DNA from: an uncultured Acidobacteriota bacterium
GTDB lineage: Bacteria > Acidobacteriota > Vicinamibacteria > Vicinamibacterales > 2-12-FULL-66-21
Assembly (NCBI GenBank): GCA_963785755.1
Contig: CAWAXG010000002.1
Coordinates: forward strand, 625,128 to 689,127
Direction: 5' to 3'
Length of the DNA: 64,000 nucleotides
The notes under the pieces are model-generated. The model was not told where the DNA came from. It searched no databases and saw nothing but the letters and a program-made list of their open reading frames with translations. Both the position numbers and the translations under genes were made by a program. Within the stretch, counting starts at the first letter, position 1. The number at the start of each line of letters is the position of its first letter. This document shows positions 1,335 to 50,951 of this stretch, piece by piece.

Positions 1335-2771
1335 GCGGCGCCCTCGGCATGGACACGTTCACCCGCCCCTACGTTATCTCCTGGAACCTCACCTACCGCT
1401 GCAACCTCGCCTGCGAGCACTGCTATCTCGACGCCGGCGGCACGCCTCAGGTCGGCACGGAGAACTTCTCCGACCGGAGCGAGCTCGGCACCGAGGAATG
1501 CTTCAAGGTCATCGACGAAATCGCCGCGTTCGCGCCTGAATGCCTGACGATCCTGACGGGCGGCGAGCCGCTCCTGCGCCGCGACATCCTCGAGATCGTC
1601 CGGCGCGCGTCGGAGCGCGAGCTCTGGGTCGTCGTCGGCACCAACGGGGTGAGCATCACGGAGAACCTGGCGAAGCGCCTCGCGGACGCCGGCGCGCGGG
1701 GCCTCTCGCTCTCGCTCGATGCGCTCGATCCCGATCGTCACGACCGCTTCAGGATGGTGCGGGGCGCCTGGCGGAACACGGTGGAGGGAGCGGAGATCCT
1801 CAATCGGACCGGGCTGCCCTTCATCGTGCAGACGACCGCGGGCTCGCACAATCTCGGCGAGCTCGAGGCGATCGCCGACTTCGCGCACGAACGCCTCGCC
1901 GCCAGGGTCTGGAACCTCTACTTCCTGGTGCCGACGGGCCGCGGGCAGTACGTGTCGGACATCACTCCTGCCCAGTACCGATGAGGTTCTCGCCTCGCTC
2001 TACCGCATCCAGAGGAAGTACGACCGCCGGATGCTCGTGAACGCGAAGTGCGCGCCACACTACATCAAGACTGTTCTGGAGCAGGCGGGGACAGGCAACG
2101 GGGACAGGCAAGAGGGACAGGCAACCGGGACAGGCAACGGGGACAGCCAGCCGGGACAGGCAAGTCCCTCGTGGCCCGGTCTGTCCGCGATCAGGACCTA
2201 CTCCGGAGGGGCTGGCGGGTGCCCGGCGGGGACGCACTACATGGGGATACGGCCGAACGGTGATGTCACCCCGTGCCCCTACCTCCCGGTGTTTGCGGGG
2301 ACCCTTCGCAGCTCGAGCCTCGCGGACCTCTGGACGTCGTCGGAGCTCTTCGCCGGCATTCGCCGCCGAACCTCGCTCGGCGGCCGTTGCGGCGAGTGCG
2401 AGATGAACGGCCACTGTGGGGGCTGCCGCGCCCGCGCCTACGGGATGACCGGCGATCTGATGGCTGAAGACCCGCTCTGCACCCACACCCCCGGCACGTT
2501 CGCCGGGTCTCCCCTTCTTGCCATCCGTGGCCGGACGTCCGTCGCGGGCGCGCAGGGGCCTGCCACGATTCATTACGGCACCGAATCGGCAACGAGCATC
2601 GCCTGGGACGATGACGCCGCCGCGCGCATGAAGAAGATCCCCGCATTCGTCCGGGGCATGGTCGTCAGGGCCGTCGAGGAATCGTGCCGTAAGAACGGCC
2701 TCGACCGCGTGACCGTGGAGGAACTCGAACGAATCCGCGCGCGGATGCCGACGCCGAAGATGTTTGGGTAG
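1331..2771 (+). pseudogene. Radical SAM/SPASM protein with C-terminal PCP_red-like tail; frame disrupted as assembled (may be a sequencing error)
   Basis: N-part (ORF 1331..1984): YRCNLACEHC (CxxxCxxC) and GGEPLL. C-part (ORF 1719..2771, homology from about 1980): GGCPAG, TPCPY and CGECEMNGHCGGCRARA SPASM cysteines, then IPAFVRGMVVRAVEE. The frames rejoin if one C is removed at CAGTAC[C]GATGAG (about 1979). Confidence 0.8.
2088..2165 (+). repeat. 13-nt tandem repeat x6 (GGGACAGGCAASN) inside the rSAM coding region
   Basis: Units start at 2088, 2101, 2114, 2127, 2140 and 2153. The total of 78 nt is in frame and encodes GTGNGDRQEGQATGTGNGDSQPGQAS. Confidence 0.9.
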
Positions 2772-4478
2772 TTACTTGACTGCCCGACCCGCCGCCGGCG
2801 CATCGTCGCCCCACGGCAGCCGACGCGGTCCGAGCCATGGATCCACGTGGGCCCGCTCAGCCCACGCGTTCCATTCGGCCGCGAGCTCTCGGACGGTGTC
2901 GGGATGCCGCGACGCGAGGTTGTTGCGCTCGACGCGGTCGGCAGCCATGTCGTACAGCTCCCAATCATCCGGATAAGTCGACACGAGCTTCCAATTGCCC
3001 GATCGAACGGCGCGGTTGCCCTCGTGTTCCCAGAAGATGGGGCGCGTGCGGCGGAGCGGGCGCCCGGCGAAGGCCGGGAGCAGGCTGACACCTTCCACGG
3101 GCTGGATGGTCTGCCCTTTGAACTCGCGGGGATACGTCGCGCCCGTGATCTCGATGACCGTCGGCATCACGTCGATGAGGTGTGCGGGCTGACGCTCGAG
3201 CGCATTGCGGCGGTTGGCCGGAATGCCCCGGGGCCAGTGCGCGATGAGCGGCACGGCAATGCCCCCTTCGTGCGTGAAGTGCTTGAACCGGCGGAAAGGC
3301 GTGCTGCTGAGCGCAGCCCAGTTCATCCCCAGGTACAGATTCGAGTTCGGTCCGCCGGGCGGGTTGCCGTTGTAGCGCCCGTCCGGACCGGACTCGGCGT
3401 TGGCGCCGTTGTCGGACAGGAACAGGATCAGGGTGTTGTCGAGGGCGCCTCGCGCCTCCAGACCTTTCACCAGCACCCCCACGCTGATATCAATCGCCTC
3501 GATCATCGCGGCGTAGACCGACATCAGATGATCGAAGCGGTCCTTCGCCTCGTCCGACAGCGATTCCCAGGCGGGTGAGTCCGCTTCCCGCGGGCTGAGC
3601 GGCCACCTGACGTCGACGAGTCCCATCGAGATCTGCCGGCGATACCGCGCGTCGCGCAGCCTGTCCCAGCCAGCTCTGTACTTGCCGCGATGTTTGGCAA
3701 TCAATTCCGGCGGCGCCATCAGCGGAAAATGCGGCGCATTGTGTGGCAGGTAGAGAAAGAACGGTCTGTTGGCCTTCCGCGCCTCGTCGATGAACTTCAA
3801 TCCGAAGTCCGTCCACAGGGATGTCGCGTACCAGTTCTGTCCGAACACGGGGGAATCGCGCGGCGTGGGTGTGCCGTCGAGGTACAGCGGCTCCTGCGCC
3901 CGCCGGGTGAGTGCATCGTCGCCACCCTCGAACTTCTGATTGGGAAAAAACATGCCCCCGGCACGCAGGCTCAGCACGCGATCGAAGCCGCGCTGCCATG
4001 GCGGCGATCCGTTCTGCAGACCCAGGTGCCACTTGCCCGACATCGCGGTGAGGTAGCCGGCGTCGCGGAGGACTTCGGCAATCGTGACGGACCGGTCATT
4101 CAGGCGGCCCGTCGTCCCCGACGACCCTTCGCGGACGATGTTGTCGAGATGCCCCATTCCCGCCTGATGAGGATAGAGCCCGGTCAGCAGGCTGGCGCGC
4201 GTCGGCGAACAGCGTGGCGTGCTGTAGAACTGTGTGAAGCGGACGCCGCGCGCGGCCAGCGCGTCGAGGTTGGGGGTCGGGATCTCGCCGCCGTAGGATC
4301 CGATGTCCGACCAGCCCATGTCGTCAACGAGAATGACGATGATGTTGGGGCGGGTATCGGTCTGTGCGGCAGCAACCGGCGCTCGGAGGGTGAAGGCGGA
4401 CATCGCGATCGCCCCACCCGCCGCGACGGCGGCTGCAGCCAGCAGGAACGAACGAGCTCGCGCGATCGGCACCGGCAC
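2772..4478 (-). CDS. Arylsulfatase (formylglycine-dependent, Cys-type), secreted
   Basis: NIIVILVDDMGWSD and the CSPTR (CxPxR) motif. N-terminal hydrophobic signal-like segment. Full-length 568-aa ORF. Confidence 0.9.
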   Translation of the reverse strand: MPVPIARARSFLLAAAAVAAGGAIAMSAFTLRAPVAAAQTDTRPNIIVILVDDMGWSDIGSYGGEIPTPNLDALAARGVRFTQFYSTPRCSPTRASLLTGLYPHQAGMGHLDNIVREGSSGTTGRLNDRSVTIAEVLRDAGYLTAMSGKWHLGLQNGSPPWQRGFDRVLSLRAGGMFFPNQKFEGGDDALTRRAQEPLYLDGTPTPRDSPVFGQNWYATSLWTDFGLKFIDEARKANRPFFLYLPHNAPHFPLMAPPELIAKHRGKYRAGWDRLRDARYRRQISMGLVDVRWPLSPREADSPAWESLSDEAKDRFDHLMSVYAAMIEAIDISVGVLVKGLEARGALDNTLILFLSDNGANAESGPDGRYNGNPPGGPNSNLYLGMNWAALSSTPFRRFKHFTHEGGIAVPLIAHWPRGIPANRRNALERQPAHLIDVMPTVIEITGATYPREFKGQTIQPVEGVSLLPAFAGRPLRRTRPIFWEHEGNRAVRSGNWKLVSTYPDDWELYDMAADRVERNNLASRHPDTVRELAAEWNAWAERAHVDPWLGPRRLPWGDDAPAAGRAVK

Positions 4479-4615
4479 ACCTCCAGGACGGGCTGGGGAA
4501 GTCTACTGAAGTTCGACTGGTTGTAGTCGGCCCAGTCCCCGCCCAGGAATCTGAAGGGGTCGCGTACTGAGGGCGTGATCGCCCAATCGCGCGGTGTTGA
4601 CGACGCTGAATGGAC

Positions 4616-5421
4616 CTATCTGAAGGGGTCCGATGCGGCCTCGATCTGCTCCTTGACCTTTTCGTCCATCCACTTCTGGAAGTCCTCGGTGGTCTGGACG
4701 GTGACGAAGCCCCGCATCCGGAAGTGGCCCAGCCCGCAGAGCTGCGCGCAGGCGATCTCGGTACTGGAACTCGGGTTTCCCGAGTCGGGTCCGCATCTCC
4801 TCGGTCGTGACGTTGGCGACGAACCAGATGGGAATCGTCAGGCCGGGGATGGCGTCCTGCTTCACGCGAAGCTCGGGCACGCCGAAGCTGTGGATGACGT
4901 CCTTGCTCCGGAGCCTCACGATGATCGGCTTGTTCACGGGCAGATAGAACTGATTGAGCGTCGTTACGTCGTCCTTCGCGGCAGGATCGGAGCGATCGAT
5001 TCCCAGGGGATTCGACTGGAGGTCGAGCAGCTTGATGTCGGTGCGGCCGAATTTCCCGTCGGGGCCTGGATAGTGGACGTTCCAGGCGAATTGTTCGCCG
5101 GTTACCTGAACGACGAGCGATTCACTCTCCGGGGGAATGCGATCGACCCTCGCGGCCCAGATCGGGATCGCGAATCCGAAGCAGGAGAATCATTTCGACC
5201 ACGGCCACGCCGCCTTCGAGATAGCTCGAGGTGTGCGACTTGACCCCCGCGTAGTTCGCCACCGGATTCCGCGAACGCCGGAAACGGAACAGGGCGTAGA
5301 TGAAGAAGCTTCCCCACCCGACGAACAGGACGAGCATGAACACATGCGTCCAGCCGATCAGGCCGTCGATCTGCCCGCCGTGAGTCGAGGCGAGCGGAGG
5401 GAGTCCGAGCCACTCTGTCAT
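4616..5421 (-). pseudogene. coxB: Cytochrome c oxidase subunit II (CuA, no cytochrome c domain); two frame disruptions as assembled
   Basis: Three consecutive frames. (1) The 5122..5421 ORF carries the TM helices. (2) The middle part carries VTGEQFAWNVHYPG...DVIHSFGVPELRVKQDAIPG. (3) My own translation of the third frame gives EIACAQLCGLGHFRMRGFVTVQ...DPFR, with the stop at 4616-4618. Breaks lie near 5178 and at CAGTAC[C]GAGATC (+ strand 4758-4765). Confidence 0.85.
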
Positions 5422-5738
5422 GATGTTCTAGGCCCCCTTTGGAGCTCCGACCATTCGGCATCGAGGTCGAGGTCGGCGATGCGCTTCGCGCGCCTGCGAA
5501 GATAGAGAAAAAAGCCCACAAACCCGCCCTGCACCGCAAGGGTGATGGCCAGCATCACCAGGACGCCGAGCTTCGCCCCGTCGATCAGCGGGGTCTCTTC
5601 CGCCCCGAAGCACACCGGGCAGGCGAGCACGCGGGCGCCGCCGGCGATCACCACGAACGCGGCGGTAATCAACGCCTGTCGCGCCGAAGCGAAGCGAAGG
5701 CGGGCCTGCCGCGCCGAAGCGAAGCGAAGGCGGGTCAT
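5418..5738 (-). CDS. Small membrane protein with CPVC motif (unknown function), oxidase-operon encoded
   Basis: Start MTRLRFASARQ at 5738, with an ATGA overlap to the upstream gene. Its stop overlaps the coxII ATG. Two predicted TM stretches and ACPVCFG. Confidence 0.55.
   Translation of the reverse strand: MTRLRFASARQARLRFASARQALITAAFVVIAGGARVLACPVCFGAEETPLIDGAKLGVLVMLAITLAVQGGFVGFFLYLRRRAKRIADLDLDAEWSELQRGPRTS
5675..5734 (-). repeat. 30-bp tandem duplication at the 5' end of the CPVC gene
   Basis: cctgtcgcgccgaagcgaagcgaaggcggg / cctgccgcgccgaagcgaagcgaaggcggg differ at one position. The pair encodes RLRFASARQA twice. Confidence 0.9.
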
Positions 5739-5935
5739 CGCAACGACCTCGTCTTGCGCAGGAACCACGAGTCGTAGACGACCAGGCCGATCGCCACGCC
5801 GAAAGCCGCGACCGCCGAGAACAGGCTTCCGACCCCGCCCTCCTCCCCGTAGATCCCCAGGCACCACACGCCGAACAGCACCGCGAGGGCCGCGGAGAGG
5901 AGGATCAGCGTTGCGTGGAACCACCTGAGGTTCAT
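5735..5935 (-). CDS. Small two-TM membrane protein (unknown function)
   Basis: MNLRWFHATLILLSAALAVLFGVW... Its ATG at 5935 overlaps the coxIV stop (ATGA). Hydrophobic. Confidence 0.5.
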   Translation of the reverse strand: MNLRWFHATLILLSAALAVLFGVWCLGIYGEEGGVGSLFSAVAAFGVAIGLVVYDSWFLRKTRSLR

Positions 5936-6237
5936 TGGTGAATCCAGTAGCCGTTGCTGTGGGTGATCACTGGAAGAGACAGCAGCACGACGAAGAAAAC
6001 AGCGGTCAGCGCGAGGACCGCGATGATCAGCTTTTTCTCGGAGATCAGGTGCATGAAGTAGCACGCCACCAGCGATCCCTTGATGGTTGCGACCAGCAGC
6101 GCGACGGTCACGGCAATCGGCACGGGAAGGTGGACCCGCGAGACCGCCACGGTGACGATTGTAAGGACCATGAGTGCGACGAAGACGGTGATGTAGATCC
6201 TGACGTGCTTGTCGATGTCAGCTGCGTGGTCGCTCAT
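5932..6237 (-). CDS. Cytochrome c oxidase subunit IV (bacterial COX4_pro type)
   Basis: About 100 aa with three TM helices. KHVRIYITVFVALMVLTIVTV...GSLVACYFMHL is typical of prokaryotic subunit IV. Positioned after coxIII. Confidence 0.8.
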   Translation of the reverse strand: MSDHAADIDKHVRIYITVFVALMVLTIVTVAVSRVHLPVPIAVTVALLVATIKGSLVACYFMHLISEKKLIIAVLALTAVFFVVLLSLPVITHSNGYWIHQ

Positions 6238-6246
6238 GGATGCTGC

Positions 6247-6837
6247 CTACAGAAGGTACAGAGTCGGGAAGAGAAAGATCCAGACCAGATCCACGAAATG
6301 CCAGAAGAGGCCCGAGTGCTCGACCCGGTTGGTGAACCACTGCGGGTTCGTCTTCCACTGCTTCGCGCCGGGACCCCAGAAATAGGCGTTCACCACCATC
6401 CCGCCGAACACGTGGAGCATGTGCAGGCCGGTCAGGGTGAAGTAGATGGCGAGGAAGTTGCTCGTGCTGGGAAAGAGTCCGTCGTGGAACTTGTGGCTGT
6501 ATTCGAAGTACTTGACCACGAGGAACACGCCCCCGAGCAGGATCGTCGCCCCCATGTAGAGTCGATAAGTCCCAAAGCGGTGGCGCATCAGCGACGCCCA
6601 CGCCATGACCATCGTGACGGAGGACAGAATCAGGACGATCGTGTTGAACGTAGCGAGCGGGACGTTCAGAATCGTGTCTCCCCGCGGCCAGCTCGGCGCT
6701 CCTGTCCGGATCAGGATGTAGCTCGCGAACAGCGCGCCGAACAGCATGACCTCCGAGGCCAGGAAGAGCCAGATGCCGATCTTGCCGTTGGTGAGACCGG
6801 TGTCGCGCCGGACCTCTACGGTGTAGGGAATGTCCAT
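6247..6837 (-). CDS. ctaE: Cytochrome c oxidase subunit III
   Basis: 196-aa heme-copper oxidase subunit III-like sequence (LFLASEVMLFGALF, HVFGGMV, WHFVDLVW). Confidence 0.9.
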   Translation of the reverse strand: MDIPYTVEVRRDTGLTNGKIGIWLFLASEVMLFGALFASYILIRTGAPSWPRGDTILNVPLATFNTIVLILSSVTMVMAWASLMRHRFGTYRLYMGATILLGGVFLVVKYFEYSHKFHDGLFPSTSNFLAIYFTLTGLHMLHVFGGMVVNAYFWGPGAKQWKTNPQWFTNRVEHSGLFWHFVDLVWIFLFPTLYLL

Positions 6838-6842
6838 TTAGG

Positions 6843-8606: not shown

Positions 8607-8625
8607 GCGGCTGTTCTCCGGTTCG

Positions 8626-9370
8626 CTACTTCGCGGCCACGGCGAACTTGAAGTCCTGGGTCTTCTTGTCGTTCGCGCGCAACCGTGACGGAAGCCGTCT
8701 GCGTCCCCAGCTTCTCGTGCCAGGCCGTGATCTCGTAGGTGCCCGGATCGAGGCCCGAGATCGTGAACTTCCCGTCCGCGCTCGTGACCGAGTAGAAAGG
8801 ATGGGTGAAGACGCCGATGTATGCGCTCATCCATGGATGGACGTCACACTTGACATGGAAGATCGCCTCAGGCTTGGCGAACGTCGTGGTCGCCTCCTTG
8901 CGCGTCGCCGGGAACGCCTGGTTGAATGTCGGGTTGACCTTTGGTTGCGTGTGGATATTGTGCATGATGCCGTCGGAGTTGAGGATCCGGTAGGGCTGAC
9001 CGACCATTATCCCCATCACGTGCGGCACATATAGGCAGCCCTTCTGATCGAGAACCACCGGTTCCTTGGGAGCCGGGAAGGTCTTGCCGGCCGGAAGCCC
9101 TTTCGAGACCCAGACCATGATGTTCCCCATGGTCTGGCCGCTGCCGAGCACGAGCATCTCGGCCGGCACGGGTTTCGAGTGCTTCTTGGCGCACGCGGGG
9201 TCGGCGTCCATGGCGAGCGGCCTTGGAGTAGGGACTTTCCCGTCGAAGGTGACGGTTCCGCTGATCGACGAGGCGGCGAATGCAACGCCCGGCCAGCACA
9301 ACACCGCGAACAGCCCGGCCACCTGCCACACCCTGTTGAATGTCCCGCGCACACTCGGCTTCTTGGTCAT
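8626..9370 (-). pseudogene. Secreted cupredoxin (type-1 copper-like) protein with carboxypeptidase-regulatory-like beta domains; last ~20 codons out of frame as assembled
   Basis: Signal peptide MTKKPS...GVAFAASS. Ligand-like pattern MHNIH ... KCDVHPWM (C-x2-H-x2-M). GGAGG lies 9 nt upstream of the ATG at 9370. The natural-looking end NDKKTQDFKFAVAAK* (stop 8626) needs a 1-nt correction near 8672-8680. Confidence 0.75.
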
Positions 9371-10815: not shown

Positions 10816-10941
10816 TCTTCCCCGGGGGACTTCGTCCCCGGACCCCCTTACACGCGCGCTCGCGGGGGCCCTCACGCCCCGCTCCGCGCGCGTGGCTCGC
10901 TCGCTGCGCTCACTCGCTGTCGAGAGTGGTTATTCATGATT

Positions 10942-14625: not shown

Positions 14626-15312
14626 ATGAATACACTGGTTGCCATCCGGAATCTCCACAAGGTGTACTTCCGCGGAAGCGAGCGGATCGACGTGCTTCAG
14701 GGGATCACCCTCGACATCCCTGAAGGGGATTTCCTGGCGCTCATGGGACCGTCGGGCTCGGGCAAGACGACGCTGCTGAACCTGATGGGGGGCCTGGACA
14801 CGCCGTCGGAGGGCTCGATTCAGGTGGGCGGGGATCAGATCGACAAGCTCTCGGGCGGCCGTCTGGCCGCGTGGCGGGCGCGTCACATCGGATTCGTCTT
14901 CCAGATGTACAACCTGTTGCCGGTGCTCACCGCGGCCAAGAACATCGAGCTGCCGCTGCTGCTGACCAAGCTGTCCTCAGCGGACCGCAAGCGGCGGGTC
15001 CAGGTCGCACTGAATGTCGTCGGGCTTGGCGAGCGCGCGCATCACTATCCGCGCCAGCTGTCCGGCGGTCAGGAGCAGCGCGTCGGCATCGCCCGGGCGA
15101 TCGTCACGGATCCGACGCTGCTCCTCTGCGACGAGCCGACCGGCGATCTCGATCGAAAGTCCGGTGACGAGATTCTGGAGCTGCTGACCGCGTTGAACCG
15201 CGACCACGGCAAGACGATCGTCATGGTCACCCACGACCCCCATGCCGCGGCGCGGGCGAAGCGCACGCTGCACCTCGAAAAGGGACTGCTCGTACAGGAG
15301 GCTGCCGCATGA
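14626..15312 (+). CDS. ABC transporter ATP-binding protein (MacB/LolD type)
   Basis: GPSGSGKTTLLN, LSGGQEQRVGIARA and LLLCDEPTGDLD. Confidence 0.95.
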   Translation: MNTLVAIRNLHKVYFRGSERIDVLQGITLDIPEGDFLALMGPSGSGKTTLLNLMGGLDTPSEGSIQVGGDQIDKLSGGRLAAWRARHIGFVFQMYNLLPVLTAAKNIELPLLLTKLSSADRKRRVQVALNVVGLGERAHHYPRQLSGGQEQRVGIARAIVTDPTLLLCDEPTGDLDRKSGDEILELLTALNRDHGKTIVMVTHDPHAAARAKRTLHLEKGLLVQEAAA

Positions 15313-16476
15313 AGTTCCTGCCGCTGGTCATCCGCAATCTGGGACGGCGCAAGGTCAGGACGATTTTCACGATCCTGTCGATCATGATCGCCTTCCTCCT
15401 GTTCGGCGTCTTGATGGCGATCCGCGCGGCGTTCAGCATGGGCGTCGACATCGCCGGCGCCGATCGGCTGATGGTGATCCACAAGATGGGGTTCATGATG
15501 CCGCTGCCGCCCGGCCACGGCCCCAAGATTCGCGCCACGCCGGGCGTGACCGATGTGACGCATGCGAACTGGTTCGGCGGGTACTACCAGGAGCCGAGCA
15601 ACTTCCTGGCGAACTTCGCCGTCGACCCGGAGAGCTGGCTCAGGATGTATCCGGAGTATCAGGTACCGGAAGAGCAGAAGAAAGCCTGGTTCGCCAACCG
15701 GGCCGGTGCGATCGTCGGTATCGACACCGCCAAGAAATTCAACTGGAAAATCGGCGATCGGGTTCCACTCATCTCACCGATTTACCGGAAGCCGGATGAT
15801 ACGCCGTGGGATTTCACGATCGACGGGATTTACGACGCGACAGCGCCGGGCGTGGACAAGACACAATTCTTCTTCCACTACGAGTACATGAACGAGGCGC
15901 TGCGTGCCGCCAACGTCAGGCTCAGCGACATCATCGGCTGGTACATCGTACCGTGTTGACGATCCGGCTTCTGCCGATGCACTCGCCAAACGAATCGACC
16001 AGGTATTCGAGAACTCGACCGGAGAGACGAAAACAGCGACCGAAAAGGCGTTCGCCGCGGACTTTGCGAACCAGGTCGGCGACATCGGCACGATCATGAT
16101 CGCGATCACCGGGGTGGTCATGGGGTTCATCCTGTTCGTCGCGGGGAACTCGCTGGCGCAGTCCGTCCGTGAACGCATCAACGAGCTGGGCGTGCTGAAG
16201 ACCCTCGGCTTCACGGACGGCCGGATCCTGGCGATTGTGCTGCTGGAATCCTGCACCATTGCGGTCATCGGCGGCGGCATCGGCCTGCTCCTGGCCTGGG
16301 TCATCATCGCCCAGGGGGATCCCACAGGCGGGTTCCTGCCGATCTTTCACTTCCCGCCGCGCGACCTGATCTTCGGCATCGCCCTCGTCGGCATCCTCGG
16401 GATCGCCACCGGCCTCATCCCGGCGCTGCAGGCCAGCCGATTGAAGATCGTGGACGCATTACGTCGAGCGGGATAG
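15309..16476 (+). pseudogene. ABC transporter permease (FtsX/MacB_PCD type); one frame disruption as assembled
   Basis: ORF 15309..15959 continues in ORF 15904..16476 (..GWYIV|RVDDPASADALAKRID..). An extra C at ATCGTA[C]CGTGTT (about 15951). The FtsX C-terminus is intact. Confidence 0.85.
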
Positions 16477-16477
16477 G

Positions 16478-16578
16478 TACGAGCACGGAGCACGTGAGCA
16501 CAGCACGTAGCACATAGCAGGTGAGCACGTGGCACATGAGCACGTGAGCACGCAGGACGTCGCACCCAGCACGTAGAC
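16478..16578. repeat. Short-period array of (R)TGAGCAC / GTAGCAC units (array A)
   Basis: gagcacggagcacgtgagcacagcacgtagcacatagcaggtgagcacgtggcacatgagcacgtgagcacgcaggacg lies between the two permease genes. Confidence 0.85.
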
Positions 16579-18384: not shown

Positions 18385-18488
18385 GTTTACCCTACCGGTG
18401 CCGGTCGGCTGACTACCTGCCTCGTCAGCCTGAACAAACCGGCTCGCGTCCCCCGCTCCCGGGCGATGGCGCCCGCGGCCAGGTTTCG

Positions 18489-18523: not shown

Positions 18524-18540
18524 CATCACTCCTCTACCAA

Positions 18541-18640
18541 CGTGCTCCGTCCTGCGTGCTGGGTGCTCACGTGCTCCGCGTGCTACGTGCTCACGTGCTC
18601 ACGTGCCTTTCGGGCTACGTGCTCACGTGCTCACGTGCTC
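18541..18640. repeat. Short-period array of GTGCTCAC / GTGCTAC units (array B, reverse orientation of array A)
   Basis: cgtgctccgtcctgcgtgctgggtgctcacgtgctccgcgtgctacgtgctcacgtgctcacgtgcc...gctacgtgctcacgtgctcacgtgctc. Confidence 0.85.
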
Positions 18641-22364: not shown

Positions 22365-22391
22365 TTTTTTCGGGGGTCATAACGAGAGGTC

Positions 22392-29597: not shown

Positions 29598-29676
29598 TTG
29601 AACCTTGAACCTTTGAACCTTTGAACTTTTTGAACCCGAACCCCTGAACCCGTGAACCCTTGAACTCCTGAACCTT
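29598..29676. repeat. Short-period array of TTGAACC-type units (array E)
   Basis: ttgaaccttgaacctttgaacctttgaactttttgaacccgaacccctgaacccgtgaacccttgaactcctgaacc lies directly upstream of the pmbA-like gene. Confidence 0.9.
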
Positions 29677-31054: not shown

Positions 31055-31300
31055 CGTGCTGCGTGCTGTGTGCTACGTGCTCACGTGCTCTTCGTGCGAC
31101 GTGCGACGTGCGACGTGCCAACATGCGACGTGCGATGTGCCAACGTGCCCGGCCGTGCTACGTGCGGCGGCGCCAAGCACGTTCGCACGTTGCACCTAGC
31201 ACGTTCGCACGTGGCACGTAGCACGTACCACGTGGCACGTGAGCATGTAGCACAAAGCACGGAAAGCACATGAGCACGCAGCACATGGCACGCAGCACGT
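31055..31300. repeat. ~245-bp imperfect palindrome built of GTGCNAC / GNTGCAC heptamers (array C)
   Basis: The left arm is GTGC-oriented (gtgctacgtgctcacgtgc..gtgcgacgtgcgacgtgcgac..). The right arm is GCAC-oriented (..gcacgttcgcacgtggcacgtagcacg..). The centre is near 31165-31175. Mirror ORFs 31070..31273(+) and 31081..31284(-) both begin MLRAHVL. Confidence 0.9.
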
Positions 31301-31315
31301 AATCAGAGGCCACCA

Positions 31316-32990
31316 ATGCATCGTCGAGACTTCGTCAAGACCATGGCGCTCTCGGGCGCCGCCATCGCCGCCAGCGATCTCGTCGGCGATCTGATCGCGC
31401 AGACGCCGCAAGGCAAGGTGCTCGAGTCGCGGTTCAAGGGACTCGGAGACGTGGCGCTTGCCGAGGCGAAGCTGACCGGATGCTCGTACGCCGATATCAG
31501 GTTCACGCGACGCACCAACTCGAGCGTGAACGCGAACGGCGGGAACAGCGACTTCGCCGACGCGTTCGGCGGGCGCGGGGGACGCGGCGGGCGTGGCGGC
31601 GGCCGCGGGCGTGGCGGCGGCGGCGATTTCGGCGGCGGAAACGCCGGCCTTGGCGGGGCTGATGAAACCGCGGGACGCGGCGCCGCCGGCTTCGGCGTGC
31701 GCGTGATTCACAGCGGGGTCTGGGGCTTCGCGAGCAGCCCGATCGTGACCGAGGACGAGATCCGCCGTATTACCCGCCTCGCGACCGAGGTCGCCAAGGC
31801 CAGCGCCATCGCCAAACAGCGCGACGTCGTCCTCGCGCCGGTGCGCGCGCATACCGAGGACCTGGGCCACCCCGATTCAGCAGGATCCGGGCAAGATTAC
31901 GCAGGACGACAAACGAGCGCTGGTGCAGAAAGTGGTCGACATCGCGATCAAGAACAAAGAGGTCGTCAGCGTGACCGCCTCTGTCGGCGTCGAGCACGAG
32001 TGGAAGTACTTCGCGAGCTCCGAAGGGTCTTACATCGAGCAGGAAGCCTGGTCGGTCTCGCCATCTTTCACGGTCACCGCGCGGAAGGACGGCCAGACGC
32101 GCTCTCGCACGTATACCGGCGAGATGATGACCGGCGGCTGGGAGATCGCCGAGCGCGCGCAGATGCCGGAGAACGCCGAGCGCATTGCGGTGGAGGCGGT
32201 CGAATTCTGCACCGCCAAGCCGGTCGAGATGGGCCTCAAGGATCTCATCCTGACGCCGTCACACGCGATGCTGACGATCCACGAAATCGTCGGCCACGCG
32301 ACCGAGCTCGACCGAATCCTGGGCTACGAGGCGAATTACGCAGGAACGAGCTTCATCAGGCTCTCCGACCTCGGCAAACTGAAATACGGCTCGAAGCTGT
32401 TCAACATCACCGCCGACCGGACGATCCCTGGCGGCGTCGGCACGATCGGGTATGACGACGATGGCGTGAAGACGCAGGAGTGGCCCCTCGTCAGGGAGGG
32501 GATCCTGGTCGGCCTGCAGACGAACCGCGAGATGGCGCATCTCATCGGCGAGAAGGCCAGCCGCGGCTGCACATCCGCGAACTCGTGGCGCGACTACCCG
32601 TTCCTGCGGATGCCGAACGTGCACCTCGATGCGGGCCCCGCCGGCTCGCCGACGCCCGAACAGATCATCGCCGACACCAAGGACGGCGTCCTGATCGACG
32701 GCCGCGGCAGCTATTCGATCGATCAGCAGCGATACAACGGACAGTTCGGCGGCAACGCGTTCTGGGAAGTCAAGAACGGCAAGATCACGCGGATGGTGAG
32801 CAACGTCACCTACAACGCGATCACGACCGACTTCTGGGCGAACCTCGACGCGATCTCGGGCAAGGAGTCGTGGCGGATGTTCGGAACCGGCGGCGACGCG
32901 AAAGGGCAGCCCACCCAGACGAACAGCATCACGCACGGCTCGCCGTATCTCCGGATCCGCCGCATCATGATCGGGGCGGCGTACGCTTAG
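31316..32990 (+). pseudogene. TldD-family metalloprotease with Tat-type signal; one frame disruption as assembled
   Basis: MHRRDFVKTMALSGAAIAA (twin-arginine). ORF 31316.. continues in ORF 31923..32990 (..HTED|WATPIQQDPGKITQDDKRALVQKVVD..). An extra C at GAGGAC[C]TGGGCC (about 31862). HEIVGHATELD is present. Confidence 0.85.
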
Positions 32991-36765: not shown

Positions 36766-36771
36766 TCAGCC

Positions 36772-38907: not shown

Positions 38908-38960
38908 GTTCAAAGGTTCAAGGGTCCAAGGGTTCAAGGTTCACTGATTCGAGGGTTCAG
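38907..38960. repeat. Short-period array of GGTTCAA-type units (array F, reverse of array E)
   Basis: agttcaaaggttcaagggtccaagggttcaaggttcactgattcgagggttcag. Confidence 0.85.
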
Positions 38961-38963
38961 AGA

Positions 38964-41633: not shown

Positions 41634-41676
41634 GATGGACGCGGCGGGAGCCGCGTGGCACGGGAGATCGGGGCCG

Positions 41677-43070: not shown

Positions 43071-43309
43071 TGGTTGATTATCGCGTTTCTCGTTGGAAAT
43101 CGATCAACGTGGCGGTTTGACTCGTTTCTACCCTGCCGCCGGCGGTCTCGTGGCTCGGGCCGGCGCCTCGGTGACCTGACAGACGGCGCTGCAAAGTCTA
43201 CCAGCAGTGCCCGGCCCTCACGAAAAGGGGCCGCCGCCACGCAGGTGCCCGCCAATCCCGCGGCCGGTGCTGGCCGACACCACTAGCGCAGCCTCGCTAG
43301 AATGTTTCG

Positions 43310-43882: not shown

Positions 43883-44055
43883 CTCGCGGATTTCTTGCCT
43901 CTCTTTCACGAGACGCGGATCACCGCCGACCTTTCACGAGTTGCGGATCGCCGCGGATTCTCCTGGGGCACGAGCCGCGGATTCGCGCGGAGGCACGGAT
44001 CAATTCCTGAGTCACGAGTCGCGGATTTGACGGGATCACGCGGATCGCGCGGGGC
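43883..44055. repeat. Array of ~25-35-nt units containing CACGAG-NN-GCGGAT (array I)
   Basis: tcacgagacgcggatc, tcacgagttgcggatc, gcacgagccgcggattc, tcacgagtcgcggattt and tcacgcggatc. Confidence 0.85.
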
Positions 44056-44076
44056 GTCCTGTCGTATCCTGTCCTC

Positions 44077-44778
44077 GTGCAGCTCGAGCTCCCGTTTCTT
44101 CGCGGTCCGGTCGTTTCAGAACCTCAGCTCGAATTCGTCCGGGTCCGGCGCGCACGAAAGTACATCCTTCGCATCCGTCCCGATGGCACGCTGCGCGTCA
44201 CGATTCCGCGTGGCGGATCGCGCCGCGAGGCGGAGATCTTCGTCGCCCGGCATCGCAACTGGGCCGATCAGGAACGCCGTCGCGTGGCCGCGCTGCACGC
44301 CCCGGTCGAGTGGCACGCCGACGATACGATCATGCTGCATGGAGAGGCCACCTCGCTGCGAATCGACCGACGCCCCTCCGGATCGGTGCTGCACCTCGGC
44401 GGCGAACGCGTCCGGGTCCCCGACGGCGTGCTCAATCTCCGGCCAGCGGCCGAAGCAGCGCTGCGCCGGATCGCAGAACGGACCCTCGTACCGAGGCTGC
44501 ACGAGCTCGCCGCAGAGCACGGCCTGACCGTGAAGCGGGTCAGCATCCGGAATCAGCGCTCGCGTTGGGGCTCGTGCTCGCGCACCGGCGCAATCGCGTT
44601 GAACTTCCGGCTGGTGCAGATGCCGCATCGGATCTGCGACTACGTGCTCCTGCACGAGCTGATGCATCTGCGCCAGCAGAATCATTCACGGCGGTACTGG
44701 CGCCTGGTCGAGCTGGTCTGTCCGGATTTCCGTGAGGCGGAGCGCTGGCTTCGAGTGGAAGGACGGTCCTTGTTCTGA
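44077..44778 (+). CDS. DUF45/YgjP-like (M48-related) metal-dependent hydrolase
   Basis: RWGSCS... and LLHELMHLRQQNHSRRYW (HExxH plus NHS). Confidence 0.8.
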   Translation: MQLELPFLRGPVVSEPQLEFVRVRRARKYILRIRPDGTLRVTIPRGGSRREAEIFVARHRNWADQERRRVAALHAPVEWHADDTIMLHGEATSLRIDRRPSGSVLHLGGERVRVPDGVLNLRPAAEAALRRIAERTLVPRLHELAAEHGLTVKRVSIRNQRSRWGSCSRTGAIALNFRLVQMPHRICDYVLLHELMHLRQQNHSRRYWRLVELVCPDFREAERWLRVEGRSLF

Positions 44779-45323
44779 TGGAGCTGACCGGTCAGCGCTG
44801 CACCCTTCGGCGCTGGCGAGCCTCGGATGCCGCCGCAATCGTGCGCCGGGCCAACAACCTGAAGATCGCGAGTCAGCTGCGCGATCGCTTTCCCCATCCC
44901 TATACAGCACGCGACGCCAGGACCTTCATCCGGCACGTGATGCAGCCGGACTCGGACGCGACCAACCTGGCGATCGAGGTCGATGGCGAGGCGGCGGGCG
45001 CGGTGGGCATGATCCAGGGAAAGGACATCGAACGCTACTCGGCCGAGATCGGCTATTGGCTGGCCGAGGACTACTGGGGCCGCGGCATCGCCGCGGAAGC
45101 CGTCACAATGCTGACCGACTACGCGTTCGGTGGTCTGAATCTCCTGCGGCTCTTCGCGTTGCCGTTCGCCAGCAACATCCAGTCAACGCGTGTACTCGAA
45201 AAGGCCGGCTACGTCCGGGAAGGCGTCCTGCACGCGAGCGCCGTGAAGCACGGCGAGCCGCGCGATCAGGTGCTGTATGCGCGCGTGAATGGAGCGTGGG
45301 CGTCGCCAATCCGCGACTCGTGA
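44778..45323 (+). CDS. GNAT-family N-acetyltransferase (RimJ/RimL-like)
   Basis: IGYWLAEDYWGRGIAAEAV...VLEKAGYVREG. Confidence 0.9.
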   Translation: MELTGQRCTLRRWRASDAAAIVRRANNLKIASQLRDRFPHPYTARDARTFIRHVMQPDSDATNLAIEVDGEAAGAVGMIQGKDIERYSAEIGYWLAEDYWGRGIAAEAVTMLTDYAFGGLNLLRLFALPFASNIQSTRVLEKAGYVREGVLHASAVKHGEPRDQVLYARVNGAWASPIRDS

Positions 45324-45341
45324 AGAATCCGCAACTCGTGA
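45308..45341. repeat. Two AATCCGC-N-ACTCGTGA units (array J, reverse of array I)
   Basis: 45308-45323 (aatccgcgactcgtga) is the exact reverse complement of 44012-44027 (tcacgagtcgcggatt). Confidence 0.9.
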
Positions 45342-45379
45342 CCAGGCGCTGATCAACCGCCGCGCTCAGCGCCCGACGG

Positions 45380-47795
45380 TCACTCGTTCCTGATCGCGAC
45401 GATTGGATCGACCGCCATCGCGCGCCGGGCCGGAACGTAGCTGGCCGCGGTCGCGATACACGCCAGGAAGATCGAGACGACGGTGAAGCTGAGGGGATCG
45501 GTGGGCGTGACGTTGTACAGCACCGAGCGGACCGCCGGCGTGACGAAGGCGGCGCCGATCATCCCGATGACGATGCCGATGGTCGCGAGCTTGAGACCCT
45601 GGCCGACGATCAGCCGCATGACGTCGCGGCGCGCGGCGCCGAGCGCCACCCGGACGCCGATCTCCTGCGTCCGCTGCGAGACCGAGTACCGACAACACGC
45701 CGTAGACGCCAATCGCTGCGAGCACCAGCGCAATCACGCCAAACAGGAAGAACATGATCCCGAACAGGCGGTACTGCCAGAAGCTTCGCTGCCTCAGGTT
45801 CTCCATGGTCGAGATCTGGAAAACGGGAAGAGCGGGATCCGAGAGCCGGAACTGCTCCCGCACCGCCGCGGTGATCGACGCGGGATCGCCCGCGACACGC
45901 AGCGTCAGGCCCGTGTTCAGCGCGGGCTCGAATGTGTAGGGCACGTAGGCCGAGGGAAAGACCGTCTGATCGTTGTCCCCCTGGAAGTGCCTGAAGTCCG
46001 CAACGACGCCGACGACCATGAACCAGTCCGGCTGCGCGTCCCCCTTGAGCCGGAACCGCCGGCCGATCGGATCGTCGTCGCCCCACAACTGTTTCGCCAT
46101 CGTTTGATTGACGAGGGCGACCGCGGTCTTCGACGTGTTTTCGGTGTCGGTGAAGTCGCGGCCGCGCACGAGCGCCAGGCCGAGCGTCTCGCGGATGTGC
46201 GGCGTGGTCGCGATGAAGCCGATGTTCCGTTCCTGGCCAGGTTCGACCGGCTTCCCGTCGACGAGCACATCGCCTCCGCCGCCGCCCCCGCCGAGCGGCA
46301 CGAAGTTCGACGCGAACGCCTTCTGCACACCGGGCAGACCCTCGACGCGGCGCAGCAGATCTTCGACCCGTCGCGCCTTCGCGTCGGCCGACTCGTACGC
46401 TTCACCCGGCAGGTAGAAGCGCAGCGTCATGAGCGGCGCGGGGTCGAATCCCACGCGGGCGCGCTGCAGATTCAGGAAGCTGCGGACGAACAGCGACGAC
46501 CCGATCAGCAGAATCACCGCGAGCGCGACCTGCGCCACCACGAGTCCGTTGCGCAGCCACGCGCGGCGTTCGCCGGCCGAACCGCGGCCGCCCTCCCTGA
46601 GGCTCTCCTGGAGGCTGGTTCCCGTCGCCTGCAATGCTGGCGCGGCGCCAAAGACGATGCCGGTTGCCAGCGAGATGGCGACGGCGTACAGGAGCGACCG
46701 CCCATCGAGTGACCAATGGATGAAGTACGGGATGCTGTCGGGCGGAATCGAGCCATCGAGAAGCGCGAGCCCGCCTTTGGCCACGAGCATGCCCAGCGGC
46801 ACGCTGAACAGACCGATCAGCATCGACTCGGTCAGCAGCTGGCGGATGATGCGCACCCGCCCGGCCCCGAGCGCGGCGCGGATCGAAATCTCGCGATGAC
46901 GGACCGACGCGCGAGCGAGCAGCAGGTTCGCGACGTTGGAACAGGCCACGAACAGTACCAGTGTCACGGCGCCCATCATCGAGAGGATGATCAGCTTCGG
47001 CTCGTCGGGAAGCATCCAGTCCTTGAGCGGACGGATGCCCAGGCCCCAGTCTCGATTGAGGGTCGGGTAGGCGGACGCGAGGCGTCCGGCGACCGAGGTC
47101 AGATCCGCTGATGCCTGCTCTTCGGAGATGCCTGGTTTCAACCGCGCGAACACTTGCAGGTTCCGGGCGTTCCGGACGGTCTTTTCGCCGTAGGGCGCGA
47201 GCGTCACCCACAGGCGCGTGGTCTCGGGGAATGCGAATCGCTGCGGCATCACGCCGATCACCGTGTGCGGACGACCGTTGACTGAGATCGCGCGCCCGAC
47301 GAGCGAGCGATCGCCGTTATACCGGTTCTGCCACACTTCGTGGCTCAACATCACCACCGGTTCGGCCCCCGGCCGATCGTCCTCCGGACCGAAGTTGCGG
47401 CCCAGGACGGGCGGCGTGCCCAGGACCTCGAACAGGTTCCAGCTCACCGTCTGCCCGATGTAGCGCTCGGGCTCGGAAGTACCGTCCGAGATTGTCAGGC
47501 TGCGTCCGGTGAATGCCGCCACGGCGCTCAGGGTGGAGGTCTGTTCCCTGAGGTCCTTGAAGTCCGCGTATGAAATACCGCCGCGCCGCACGCCGACGCG
47601 CTGGTTGACTGAATTCAGCACGATGAGGCGGTCGGGCTCGGAGTAGGGATACGGCTTGAGAAGAACGCCGTCAACGACACTGAAAATTGATGTGTTTATG
47701 CCGATGCCGAGCGACAGGCAGCTCACCGCAATGGCTGTAAACCCTGGGGTCTTGGTGAGCGAACGCCAGGCATACCGGATATCTTGAAGCAGCAT
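45380..47795 (-). pseudogene. ADOP/MacB-like ABC permease; one frame disruption as assembled
   Basis: ORF 45366..47795 carries everything up to ..GVYGVLS. ORF 45380..45733 continues YSVSQRTQEIGVRVALGA...VAIRNE*. There is an extra base inside + strand AGTAC[C]GA (45685-45692). Confidence 0.85.
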
Positions 47796-47949
47796 AGGGG
47801 GTTAGACGGCACGTCGCCATCGATGTTCCGGGCACATCAAGGGGTCAGGCCGTGAATTGGTGAACAGGGGGTCAGGCCCCGAAACAACCGGGACCACCGA
47901 GACAACGCCGGCGCCCTGGCTGCCGTCAAAGAGTCCGGAGGTCGAACGA

Positions 47950-48765
47950 ATGCACGGAACAGTTGGCACAACACGGGCTTTGGGCTTCGCGCTCGCCCTG
48001 ACTCTTCTCGCGCCCGCGGGGGGCGCGATCACGACGGCGCAGCAGACCGACGACTGGTGCCGCGAGGACAACTGGGGCCGGGACCGCGCGGGCGTCTGCG
48101 ACGTCCGGCAGTTCACGGTGGCGGCGACCTCCGGCGTCCTGTCGGTGAGCGGAACGAATGGCGGCGTTCGCGTCGACGGACAGGCACGCGGCGATGTGTT
48201 GATCCTCGCCAAGGTCGTGGCGACCGCCTCGACCGAGGCGCGCGCGCGGGAAATCGCAAATTCGATCCAGCTCAATCCGACGCTCGAGCGCATCCGCGCC
48301 GAGGGCCCTCGGACCCAGAATCGCGAGGGATGGTCGGTCAGCTATCGCATCGCCGTCCCGCGGGCGCTCAACGTCTCGGTCGAAACCAGCAACGGCGGCA
48401 TCGTCATCCAGGACCTGGATTCGAAGGTGGACTTCCGTACCAGCAACGGCGGCGTGAAGCTCATCGGACTCGCGGGCGAGGTCCGTGGACGCACGTCGAA
48501 CGGCGGGATCGACGTGGATCTCGATGGCCAGGCGTGGATCGGCGAAGGACTCGAGGTGGAAACGAGCAACGGCGGCGTGCGCCTCTCAATCCCCGAACAT
48601 TATTCGGCGCGGCTCGAGGCGACCACCCACAATGGCGGCATGAACATCGACTATCCCGGCGTGGCCGAGCCTCGCGATCGGGATCTCTCGGTGCAGCTCG
48701 GATCCGGCGGCGCGCCGATTCGGGTGCGGACGTCGAACGGCGGGATCAGGGTCTCTCGCAAATAG
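47950..48765 (+). CDS. DUF4097-like beta-strand repeat protein, secreted
   Basis: Signal peptide (ALGFALALTLLAPAGG) and repeated SNGG[IV] strands. Confidence 0.7.
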   Translation: MHGTVGTTRALGFALALTLLAPAGGAITTAQQTDDWCREDNWGRDRAGVCDVRQFTVAATSGVLSVSGTNGGVRVDGQARGDVLILAKVVATASTEARAREIANSIQLNPTLERIRAEGPRTQNREGWSVSYRIAVPRALNVSVETSNGGIVIQDLDSKVDFRTSNGGVKLIGLAGEVRGRTSNGGIDVDLDGQAWIGEGLEVETSNGGVRLSIPEHYSARLEATTHNGGMNIDYPGVAEPRDRDLSVQLGSGGAPIRVRTSNGGIRVSRK

Positions 48766-48803
48766 CGACCCTGATCTCGAGGACGGAATCCTCTTGGTTC
48801 CTA

Positions 48804-48859
48804 TTCACAGGGAGGACGGGAGGGACGTCGAAAACTTTTCCTCCCGTCCTCCTTGTGAA
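48804..48859. terminator. ~20-bp-stem hairpin between convergent genes (candidate bidirectional terminator; member of a repeat family)
   Basis: ttcacagggaggacgggagg - gacgtcgaaaactttt - cctcccgtcctccttgtgaa. Confidence 0.55.
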
Positions 48860-48903
48860 AGAAGGTCCTCCCTGTGCAAAGAAACAGAACTCCCGTCCTC
48901 GTA

Positions 48904-50951
48904 TCAGAGATACTTCCTGAGCCACCCGAAGACCGCTTCGTGCCACACGCGGCTGTTGTTGGCCTGCAACACCCAGTGCCCCTCGTCCGGGAACACCAGC
49001 GCCTCCGCAGGCACGCCGTTGCGCCGCAGCACGGTGAACATCTGCAGCCCTTGATCGACGGGGACCCGGAAGTCGAGCTCGTTGGTGATGATCAGCGTCG
49101 GCGTCTTGATCTTGTGCGCGTGAAGGTGCGGGGACCACGTCATGTACTGTTCCCGCGCCTTCGCACTCCAGGGCGGACCGCCGAACTCCCACTCCGTGAA
49201 CCACAGCTCCTCGGTCGCCATCGCCATCGACTCGAGATTGAACACGCCGTCGTGTGAGACCGCGGCCTTGAAGCGGTTGCTCCGCCCGAGAATCCAGTTG
49301 ACCGCGTAACCTCCGTAGCTCGCTCCCGCGATGCCCATCCGCGTGGCATCCGCATACGGCAGCTTCGCGGCGGCGTTGAACACCGCGTCGAGATCGACCA
49401 TGACCTTGCCGGCCCAGTCGCCGGTGATCTCGTCGACGAACTTCTGGCCGAATCCGGTCGAGCCGCGCGGATTCGGCGCGACGATGACCCATCCTTGCGC
49501 GGCCCAGAGTGACGGGTTCCAGCGCGTCGACCACGCGTCCTCCCACGCTCCCTGCGGCCCGCCATGAATCAGGAACACGACCGGATACCGCTTGGCGGCA
49601 TCGAACTGCGGAGGCTTGATCACCCAGGTACCTGCACGGGTGTCCCGGCCGCGCCCTTGACCGTATGGCTCTCCGGTCGCGCGAACGCCACGTCGCGCAG
49701 CCATGCGGTATTCTCCTGCGTGATCACCTTCTCATTGCCGCCCGCGGCGTCGACCCGGACGAGCTCGGGCGGCGCGGTCAGCGTCGATCTCGAGAACACT
49801 ACGAAGCCATCGCCTGGCCTGGCGGCGGAGATCGCTCCCCCTTCCGCGATCCGCTTTGGCGTCCCGCCCCCGGCCGGCACGACGAACAGGTGCTCGCGGC
49901 CGTCCTGCGCGGCGGAGAACCAGACCGATTGGCCGTCCTTCGTCAGCGCGAAGTCGCCAACCGACAGGTCGGGCATCGTGAAGAGGGTGCGCTTCGCGCC
50001 GGTCGATCGATCGTAGGCGTCAAGGTACCAGCGATCGGACTCGAATCCCGGCCGGCGCTGCGCGCGAACGAAGAGGGTCTTGCCGTCCGGCGAGAACACC
50101 GGCTGCAGATCGGCGGCGGCGTTGGTCGTCAGCTTGCGCGCAGTTCCGCCCGCGGCGTCGACGATCCAGACGTCGTTGTTCGTGGTCCAGGCTTCCTTGT
50201 CGTTGCCTTCGCGGCCCGAGACGAACGCCAGCTCGCGGCCGTCCGGCGAAAACGCCATGCCCGCGTCCTCCTGCTGGACCGGCGGCGCATCGAAATCTCC
50301 CGGCGTGACGTCCACGGCGCGGCGTGAGGCGATGTCCGCGACGAGCACATGGTGGCGGATGTTCTCCCGCCACTCGTCCCAGTGCCTCGAGAGCAGCCGG
50401 GTGAGACGGCGGACCTTGACCGGGTTCTTGTCCGCTTCCTCTTTCTTGCGCTTGTTGCACTCCTCGTCTGCGCACTCCGGGTAGACATCCGAGACGAATG
50501 CGATCTTCGAGCCGTCCGGAGAAAAGACGAGCGGCGGCAGCACGCCCATGGCGAGGTCCGTCACTCTTCGAACGTCCTTGCCGTCCGCGTCGGCGACGTA
50601 CAGCTGTGCGGTCCCTTCGCGCGTGGAGATGAAGGCGATCCGGCGCCCGTCGGCCGAGAACCGCGGCGTGTTCTCCGATCGTTCACCGGCAATCAACTCG
50701 TGCGGCGTGCCCCCGTCAGCGGGCACACGCCAGATGTCGGCGTTGCGGCGTCCCGATTTCAGGTCCGTGGTCGTCCGCAAGTAAATGACCGTTCGGCCGT
50801 CGGGCGAGAGCTGTGGATCCGCGATGCGGATGGCCGCGAGCAGATCGTCGACAGCCATCGGCCGGCCGCCCTGCGCTCGAACCGCACACGTCGCGAAGGT
50901 CGCCATGAGCAGCGCCATCGCGGACAGAGGGGTTTTCATGCTCGTCATCAT
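48904..50951 (-). pseudogene. S9-family serine peptidase (beta-propeller + prolyl oligopeptidase/acylaminoacyl-peptidase domain); one frame disruption as assembled
   Basis: ORF 49620..51020 holds the signal peptide and TolB-like propeller. ORF 48904..49704 holds the catalytic domain (GASYGGY, HGGPQG). The break lies at caGGTACCtgg (about 49626-49633). Confidence 0.85.

Follow-up and report, generated by a model that had tools for sequence, protein, structure and literature searches.

Long-read polishing of diploid genomes and of metagenomes is known to leave indel artefacts at heterozygous or strain-variable positions. Bacterial DNA modification gives rise to strand-specific Nanopore miscalls, and these persist into assemblies (PMC11610603). 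Here we consider a 64,000-nt stretch of contig CAWAXG010000002.1 (the window; GC content 65.4%), whose source organism is an uncultured acidobacterium of the Vicinamibacterales. About ten one- or two-base frame breaks lie in this window within conserved genes that are otherwise whole. These breaks are very probably consensus errors of long-read metagenome assembly, not mutations of the organism, and two classes of error can be told apart. In the first, a spurious base stands beside the tetranucleotide GTAC, turning GTACN into GTACCN or, seen from the opposite strand, NGTAC into NGGTAC. In the second, the consensus keeps both alleles of a strain-variable single-nucleotide polymorphism (SNP) in tandem, giving a +1 shift.

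The nearest GTDB species representative reaches 65% amino-acid identity at best, and a same-species reference genome is therefore absent from that collection. Relatives were found by exact-protein look-ups using intact neighbouring genes and are of two kinds. The first comprises long contigs (16-811 kb) named in the style 'contig_N' from the ENA assemblies ERZ25039469, ERZ25039531, ERZ25039536 and ERZ25039541; L015 below is ERZ25039469 contig_170795. The second comprises Joint Genome Institute (JGI) metagenome contigs (including L002-L004, L011 and L016), one Logan contig and one 'FX_farmland' scaffold (L098). Nucleotide identity of these relatives to the window is 94-99.6%, and the window itself is not among them. 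Gene splits were established by codon-usage Viterbi segmentation, by Pfam scans of adjacent frames and by intact orthologues in the near-identical contigs. For the rSAM/SPASM, MacB/FtsX permease, TldD, ADOP permease, S9 peptidase and HAD genes (intact lengths 477, 388, 557, 804, 680 and 248 aa) the two frame pieces are consecutive parts of one Pfam domain architecture. For COX2 and a CarboxypepD_reg-like gene Pfam matches one fragment only, and the splits rest on intact orthologues of 267 and 253 aa, respectively.

The GTAC-linked breaks are as follows, with extra bases in square brackets.

1974-1981, plus strand: rSAM/SPASM gene (1331-2771), AGTA[C]CGA, one surplus C after GTAC.
4758-4765, minus strand: COX2, first break, TCT[CG]GTACT (minus strand AGTAC[CG]AG; the brackets hold both bases of the pair), one extra base adjoining GTAC.
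15947-15954, plus strand: MacB/FtsX permease gene (15309-16476), CGT[A]CCGT, one extra base.
31857-31863, plus strand: TldD gene, GAGGAC[CT]GGG (again both bases of the pair), where relatives have GTAC.
45685-45692, minus strand: ADOP permease gene (45366-47801), plus-strand AGTA[C]CGA, one surplus C after GTAC.
49625-49633, minus strand: S9 peptidase gene, CCC[AG]GTA[C]CTG (AG being the pair), two extra bases, one each side of GTAC.
55305-55312, no strand: non-coding GTAC+C event, CGTA[C]CGA.

With both strands counted, the window has exactly three copies of the 8-mer AGTACCGA (1974, 4758 and 45685); all three sit on breaks and are errors of AGTACGA. In the rSAM gene the window reads AGTACCGA around position 1978, and the same extra C is found in L007, while L006 and the FX_farmland scaffold read AGTACGA. 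Removal of C1978 yields a 479-aa protein that aligns without gaps to the intact 477-aa P0001 (96-97% identity) through the invariant PAQYDEVL. Against 120 homologues, the corrected protein shows no alignment gaps across the junction, and the invariant stretch GRGQYVSDITPAQYDEVLASLYRIQRKY is spanned. At 45689 the window again reads AGTACCGA, where four of four relatives (L008, L009, L010 and the JGI contig L011) read AGTACGA; the ADOP permease is intact at 804 aa in L008, L010 and L011. The third copy, written TCGGTACT at 4758, lies in COX2. Here the window reads TCTCGGTACT and the relatives read either TCTCGTACT (the JGI contig L002, L006 and L098) or TCTGGTACT (L001), so that the window holds both C and G at 4759, a position that varies among relatives, three of four of which carry the AGTACGA-type reading. 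COX2 is intact (267 aa) in L001, L002 and L098.

The remaining sites vary this pattern. The permease junction is CGTACCGT in the window (15947, extra base at 15950), compared with CGTCCGT and an intact 388-aa gene in three JGI contigs. L001, another long-read-style assembly, reads CGTCACGT at this point: the same +1 with the bases reversed (CA versus AC). In TldD the window reads GAGGACCTGGG and the relatives read GAGTACCGGG (L014) or GAGTACTGGG (L015 and the JGI contig L016), that is, GAGTAC[T/C]GGG, with an intact 557-aa gene in all three. The window thus carries a T>G change within GTAC (31859) as well as both C and T at 31861. The S9 peptidase junction, AGGTACCT at 49626, lies within the window string CCCAGGTACCTGC (+2), for which relatives have CCCAGTACTGC or CCCGGTACTGC, that is, CCC[A/G]GTACTGC, and L009 has CCCAGGTACTGC (+1). 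By contig, the corresponding strings are CCCAGTACTG (L008, L011 and L017), CCCGGTACTG (L010) and CCCAGGTACTG (L009, +1), and the gene is intact at 680 aa in L008, L010 and L017. Lastly, at the non-coding site 55310 the window reads CGTACCGA, and L010, the one informative relative covering it, reads CGTACGA.

Two of these genes have variable surroundings or content of a different kind. Within the rSAM gene a 13-bp unit repeated six times (2086-2163) encodes a low-complexity G/T/N/D/Q linker of variable length; L098 is shorter there by 9 bp and homologues differ greatly. Between the DUF4097 and S9 peptidase genes, ERZ25039541 contig_132661 carries a Transposase_20 (IS110-family-like) gene (L008 14205-15029; L017 19762-20586), which is absent from the window, L009, L010 and L011.

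The sequence-only reading of this DNA had proposed that at least nine conserved genes are split, with breaks clustering on GTAC. Its coordinates and strings for the five junctions at 1974, 4758, 15947, 45685 and 49626 were exact, as was its report of one 8-mer at three sites, of which we find no further copies and each of which lies on a break. Pfam matches and intact orthologues likewise bear out the split genes, except that its cupredoxin is the CarboxypepD_reg-like gene and its RluB lesion is of another kind (below). Its proposal that deletion of one C after GTAC restores the protein at the first four of these junctions holds at the protein level; at the nucleotide level, comparison with the JGI contigs identifies the base gained at 15950 as an A, and at 4759 both alleles are present. 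The S9 break does lie at 49626-49633 on GTAC, with two extra bases. A lost G at 44036-44038, an eleventh lesion, had escaped it. Four further breaks (about 5178, 8675, 31862 and 57292) had been described as free of GTAC. This is correct for three of them; at 31862, in TldD, all relatives have GAGTAC where the window has GAGGAC, which makes the GTAC association stronger than had been thought.

There are 146 GTAC sites in the window (one per 438 bp), and insertion slots inside or directly flanking GTAC make up 1.14% of it. Five of the ten broken loci fall at such slots (P = 4.6e-8) or, counted by events, 6 of 11 (P about 1e-9), in agreement with the earlier claim of clustering beyond chance. Only a fraction of the motif copies is affected: true AGTACGA/TCGTACT sites are hit at 3 of 9. 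Copies of GTACCG and CGGTAC away from the breaks show no indel in the regions covered by relatives and look genuine, and the same is true of the GGTACCG sites at about 15661, 24975 and 53500, which had already been read as intact. An open reading frame (ORF)-merging test, in which a C was deleted at each GTACC/GGTAC, missed the known sites and was positive at 2-3% of control sites; it is useless because alternative frames stay open in 65% GC DNA. The suggestion that GTACN to GTACC substitutions are also common was unsupported, flanking positions being not clearly enriched.

For every break apart from the RluB-like deletion there is at least one near-identical contig without it, and for each GTAC-linked break within a gene at least one such contig is not of Flye style (JGI or FX_farmland). 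The JGI contigs L002-L004, L011 and L016 and the FX scaffold L098, which come from other samples and are not the same DNA, are without every GTAC-linked extra base that they cover. The JGI and FX contigs cover all affected genes except those of the S9 peptidase and HAD, and each gene covered is intact in them (COX2, the permease, TldD, ADOP and rSAM). The S9 peptidase and HAD genes are intact in ERZ25039541 (680 and 248 aa), the S9 peptidase also in ERZ25039531, and a JGI contig spanning the S9 break is without the extra bases. As these near-identical contigs of other assemblies show, the true sequence would lack the extra base at each site.

The same type of error is replicated in the long 'contig_N' relatives, which have breaks of their own: ClpB lies in four pieces in L015, COX3 is split in L001, and the ADOP and S9 genes are split in L009. 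Across its 35 kb, L015 has 69 small private indels, of which two-thirds are insertions, and its ClpB, glycosyltransferase, GH20 and Peptidase_M90 genes are all fragmented. Ten of these 69 lie near GTAC (2.2% expected; P about 3e-6), among them 43045 GTAC[C]T, 43384 GT[C]AC, 43622 and 54884 GTA[C]CG, and 25515 [G]GTAC. L015 is far more error-rich than the window; samples of one species thus differ strongly in how many errors they carry. Other GTAC events are GTA[T]CG at 1951 in L006 and GTAC[G]GGGG at 63341 in L017. Of the 17 small indels private to JGI and Logan contigs, by comparison, 0 lie close to GTAC. GTAC events, either private or shared, occur in contigs of ERZ25039469, ERZ25039541, ERZ25039536 and ERZ25039531, and the set of frameshifts differs per assembly. 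The product is nearly always GTACC or GGTAC, and both orientations are seen (GTAC+C and G+GTAC). Moreover, errors recur at the same site across assemblies: at 1978 with L007, at 15950 as AC in the window and CA in L001, and at 49626 as AG in both the window and L009. By a crude codon-usage Viterbi scan, the reading frame appears to switch internally 0.16-0.31 times per kb in the window and in long-read-style 'contig_N' loci, versus 0.02-0.05 times per kb in the other GTDB loci, mostly of short-read style (k141_/NODE_).

Four further breaks lie away from GTAC.

5178-5181, minus strand: COX2, second break, CCGA[AG]CAGG (both bases of the pair bracketed), no GTAC near.
8677-8679, minus strand: CarboxypepD_reg-like gene beside COX1, break near its 3' end, GCG[CG]CAACC (likewise), no GTAC near.
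44035-44038, plus strand: YgjP-like gene, one base absent (GGGATC-ACG) about 10 nt into the gene.
57289-57292, plus strand: HAD hydrolase gene, one base absent, no GTAC near.

At 5179 the window string CCGAAGCAGG contains both alleles, relatives having either CCGAACAGG (L006 and L007) or CCGAGCAGG (L001, L002 and L098). The same holds at 8678, where the window has GCGCGCAACC and relatives have GCGCCAACC (L006) or GCGGCAACC (L001 and L002); the gene measures 253 aa in L002. Across the window, adjacent bases correspond to both alleles of the relatives at 4759 (C/G), 5179 (A/G), 8678 (C/G), 31861 (C/T) and 49626 (A/G), and in L015 the alleles T and A at 18450 have become TA. No such allele pairs are seen among relatives at 1978, 45689 and 55310. 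Allele merging explains the breaks at 5179 and 8678, which have no GTAC, and plays a part in those at 4759, 31861 and 49626. The two remaining lesions are losses. At 44037 one G is missing from the window: 4 of 5 relatives, JGI and Logan contigs among them, have GGGATCGACG, and L009, the fifth, has diverged here but likewise exceeds the window by one base. The YgjP-like gene is 250 aa in relatives; in the window its start is truncated, and the longest ORF left measures 233 aa. At 57291 L017 reads GCCGCACGG where the window has GCCGC-CG; the HAD gene is intact (248 aa) in L017, and Pfam HAD_2 positions 1-53 and 61-176 are split over two window frames. A few homopolymer-type events were also seen, in a C run at 43257, a T run at 22370 and, in L017, a G run at 63341. 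None of the gene-breaking events is in a homopolymer, and most are insertions, not deletions.

The most likely type of assembly, judged from contig naming and error profile, is Flye plus Medaka on Nanopore reads. Microflora Danica (MFD) long-read metagenomes were assembled with Flye in meta, nano-hq mode and given one round of Medaka 1.8.0 (PMC12313526), and MFD metagenome-assembled genome (MAG) records bear 'contig_N' names. For ERZ25039469, -531, -536 and -541 we found no paper or named project, and a tie to MFD, suggested by the contig naming and by MFD MAGs as distant relatives, is unconfirmed. Both classes of error could arise where the reads at a column are divided over two calls (a split column) and polishing, instead of picking one of them, writes an insertion. 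In the allele-merging class the split would come from a real strain mixture. In the GTAC class it may come from a systematic, probably strand-specific miscall of a modified base in GTAC of native DNA, and a link between the GTAC errors and DNA modification is plausible by analogy. Merged alleles and the AC/CA reversal are what a polisher working on a split column is predicted to produce, and no mutational process predicts them. The sequence-only reading had favoured a motif-specific long-read consensus error; intact relatives, replication, recurrence and the GTACC/GGTAC product support this, with allele merging to be added as a further class.

Several points weigh against consensus error and, in particular, against a modified GTAC as its source. 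The comparison contigs are from other samples and strains than the window's own, and the sequencing technology is deduced as described above. Only about 5% of the GTAC sites in the window are affected. In published cases, modification has caused mainly substitutions in Nanopore data, not insertions (PMC11610603). Substitutions at or beside GTAC show no clear enrichment in our comparison, in which one window-private substitution lies in GTAC (31859). The relatives' genes in the region include no DNA methyltransferase in their precomputed Pfam annotations, although no search aimed at one was made. Lastly, GTAC occurs at 0.85 of expectation, a mild depletion; as a hint of restriction-modification through GTAC avoidance, this value is uninformative.

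The alternative that survives best, which we nonetheless consider unlikely, keeps the artefact and changes its cause: a bias of the basecaller or polisher for the context of GTACN k-mers, acting in unmodified DNA. A context bias would account for the near-constant k-mer of the errors, GTACC or GGTAC, and for the inserted bases at 15950 and 18450, each of which creates a GTAC that is absent from short-read-style relatives. The lack of a methyltransferase in the region (with the limit just given) and the barely depleted GTAC also sit well with it. In loci of other species from MFD long-read MAGs, GTAC lies near 10 of 76 apparent frame switches versus 7% expected, a weak excess which could mean that the effect is not organism-specific; this signal is marginal, however, and the Viterbi scan behind it is crude. 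A general GTAC bias of a widely used basecaller would be expected to be well documented, but GTAC was not found as a Nanopore error motif in the literature searched. Moreover, strain- or species-dependent error rates on native DNA have usually been traced to modification (PMC11610603, PMC11649196).

That the frameshifts are real, through GTAC-targeted +1 mutation (by a GTAC-specific nicking enzyme or a repair defect, for example) that left true pseudogenes or segregating variants, is very improbable. The extra bases do stand in the deposited sequence, their association with the motif is far above chance, and two events are common to another assembly (1978 with L007 and 15950 with L001). Yet the genes concerned are respiratory and housekeeping genes (COX2, the neighbourhood of alternative complex III, TldD and the permeases) that are intact in strains 98-99.6% identical, the hit sets differ per long-read-style assembly with none in the other kinds of assembly, and the insertions at 15950 differ between assemblies (AC versus CA). 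Half of the breaks are merged SNP alleles, which is not a mutational outcome, and neither compensating changes nor wider decay are seen. Genuine pseudogenes would show inherited, method-independent lesions, and the lesions here are neither, each being missing from one or more relatives of 96-99.6% identity; the exception is the RluB-like deletion, which is present in L017 too and may be genuine. The differing sets, the merged alleles and the intact near-identical strains leave the real motif-targeted mutation that the sequence-only reading had raised as its second possibility without support. A variant, in which GTAC+C is real heterogeneity within the population, produced in this Vicinamibacterales lineage by a GTAC-targeted +1 insertion process such as error-prone repair of nicks from a GTAC-specific enzyme and sampled differently by each long-read consensus, is in our view less credible still. 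Far more likely is a milder version of it, namely that the signature may reveal, by analogy with known motifs, a GTAC-specific modification in an uncultured soil acidobacterium together with an undescribed insertion-type failure of Nanopore polishing. Programmed ribosomal frameshifts or transcriptional slippage used by the organism, to which the 8-mer recurring at three breaks might be thought to point, can be set aside almost entirely, since the orthologues of close relatives are single-frame without the extra base, the sites have no slippery homopolymeric or heptameric sequence, and the breaks fall at unrelated positions of unrelated proteins, one of them being +2.

The lesion in the RluB-like gene stands apart from the consensus errors described above.

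63160-63180, plus strand: RluB-like pseudouridine synthase gene (63010-63645), S4 and catalytic domains in different frames.

The S4 domain spans about 63010-63176 and the catalytic domain begins at about 63170. Compared with E. coli RluB (4lab), about 31 codons are absent, and the alignment skips chain residues 59-89. L017 has the same structure as the window, without an indel between the two at the junction. The lesion is a deletion of roughly 90-95 bp, of another kind than the frame breaks and with no link to GTAC; it may be a real deletion or pseudogene, or a collapse shared by both assemblies.

Other stretches of the window also vary among relatives. One is a GC-rich segment of about 123 bp (10818-10940) that contains palindromic stretches and is flanked by two minus-strand genes, one of 404 aa and the other encoding ActD of the alternative complex III cluster. 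None of the three relatives that span the site (L001, L002 and L006) has this segment, and their two genes abut; it may represent either a small mobile or REP-like insertion or an artefact of assembly. Tandem arrays built of 7-8 bp units lie between genes at 16481-16552, 18540-18640, 31093-31301 and 60166-60251, and also at 29598-29674, 38908-38959 and 51484-51532. Their units are AGCACGT/GAGCACGT (complement GTGCTCAC) as well as TTGAACCC, GTTCAAGG and CCCGAGT. Copy number varies among near-identical relatives, and these arrays form a recurring type of hypervariable intergenic repeat in the lineage. About 158 bp of the window (62835-62992) is absent from L017. This piece takes in what is likely the true start of a PQQ-repeat protein and its signal peptide (MRVVLAFAASW...); the 511-aa ORF of the window and the 458-aa call of L017 both extend upstream to the same GTG. 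Lastly, about 550 bp at 60883-61432 with a BamE-domain ORF (60668-61396) corresponds to about 64 bp in L017, a strain-specific indel beside a NUDIX gene.

The affected genes are almost certainly intact in the organism, and the biological significance of the breaks is small; in practical terms they serve as a caution about sequence quality and perhaps as a clue to methylation. About one in six of the window's genes is falsely split, and annotation, pseudogene counts and metabolic inference are thus distorted for this contig and its sister assemblies until they are polished. Most of the false frameshifts would be caught by a screen of GTACC/GGTAC sites together with strain-variable columns. If modification of GTAC is confirmed, the signature would serve as a readout of a methylation motif in an uncultured lineage of the Vicinamibacterales.

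The window resembles three known types of error, each in part. Homopolymer-length errors of Nanopore and PacBio CLR (continuous long read) data are likewise one-base indels that shift gene frames, and a few events here are of this type, but the gene-breaking events lie outside homopolymers and are mostly insertions. Strain-variable polishing artefacts are matched by both SNP alleles standing in tandem at 4759, 5179, 8678, 31861, 49626 and, in L015, 18450; alone, however, they leave the pure GTAC+C events unexplained (1978, 45689 and 55310 in the window; 43045, 43622 and 54884 in ERZ25039469). Nanopore errors at methylation motifs (Dam GATC, Dcm CCWGG and strain-specific motifs; Liu et al. 2024, PMC11610603) share with the GTAC events a single short palindromic motif, recurrence at the same sites in independent assemblies, an effect on a fraction of the motif copies and absence from assemblies that are not of Flye style and are probably short-read. 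They differ in that those published are mostly substitutions, whereas here the error is a one-base insertion that turns GTAC into GTACC or GGTAC.

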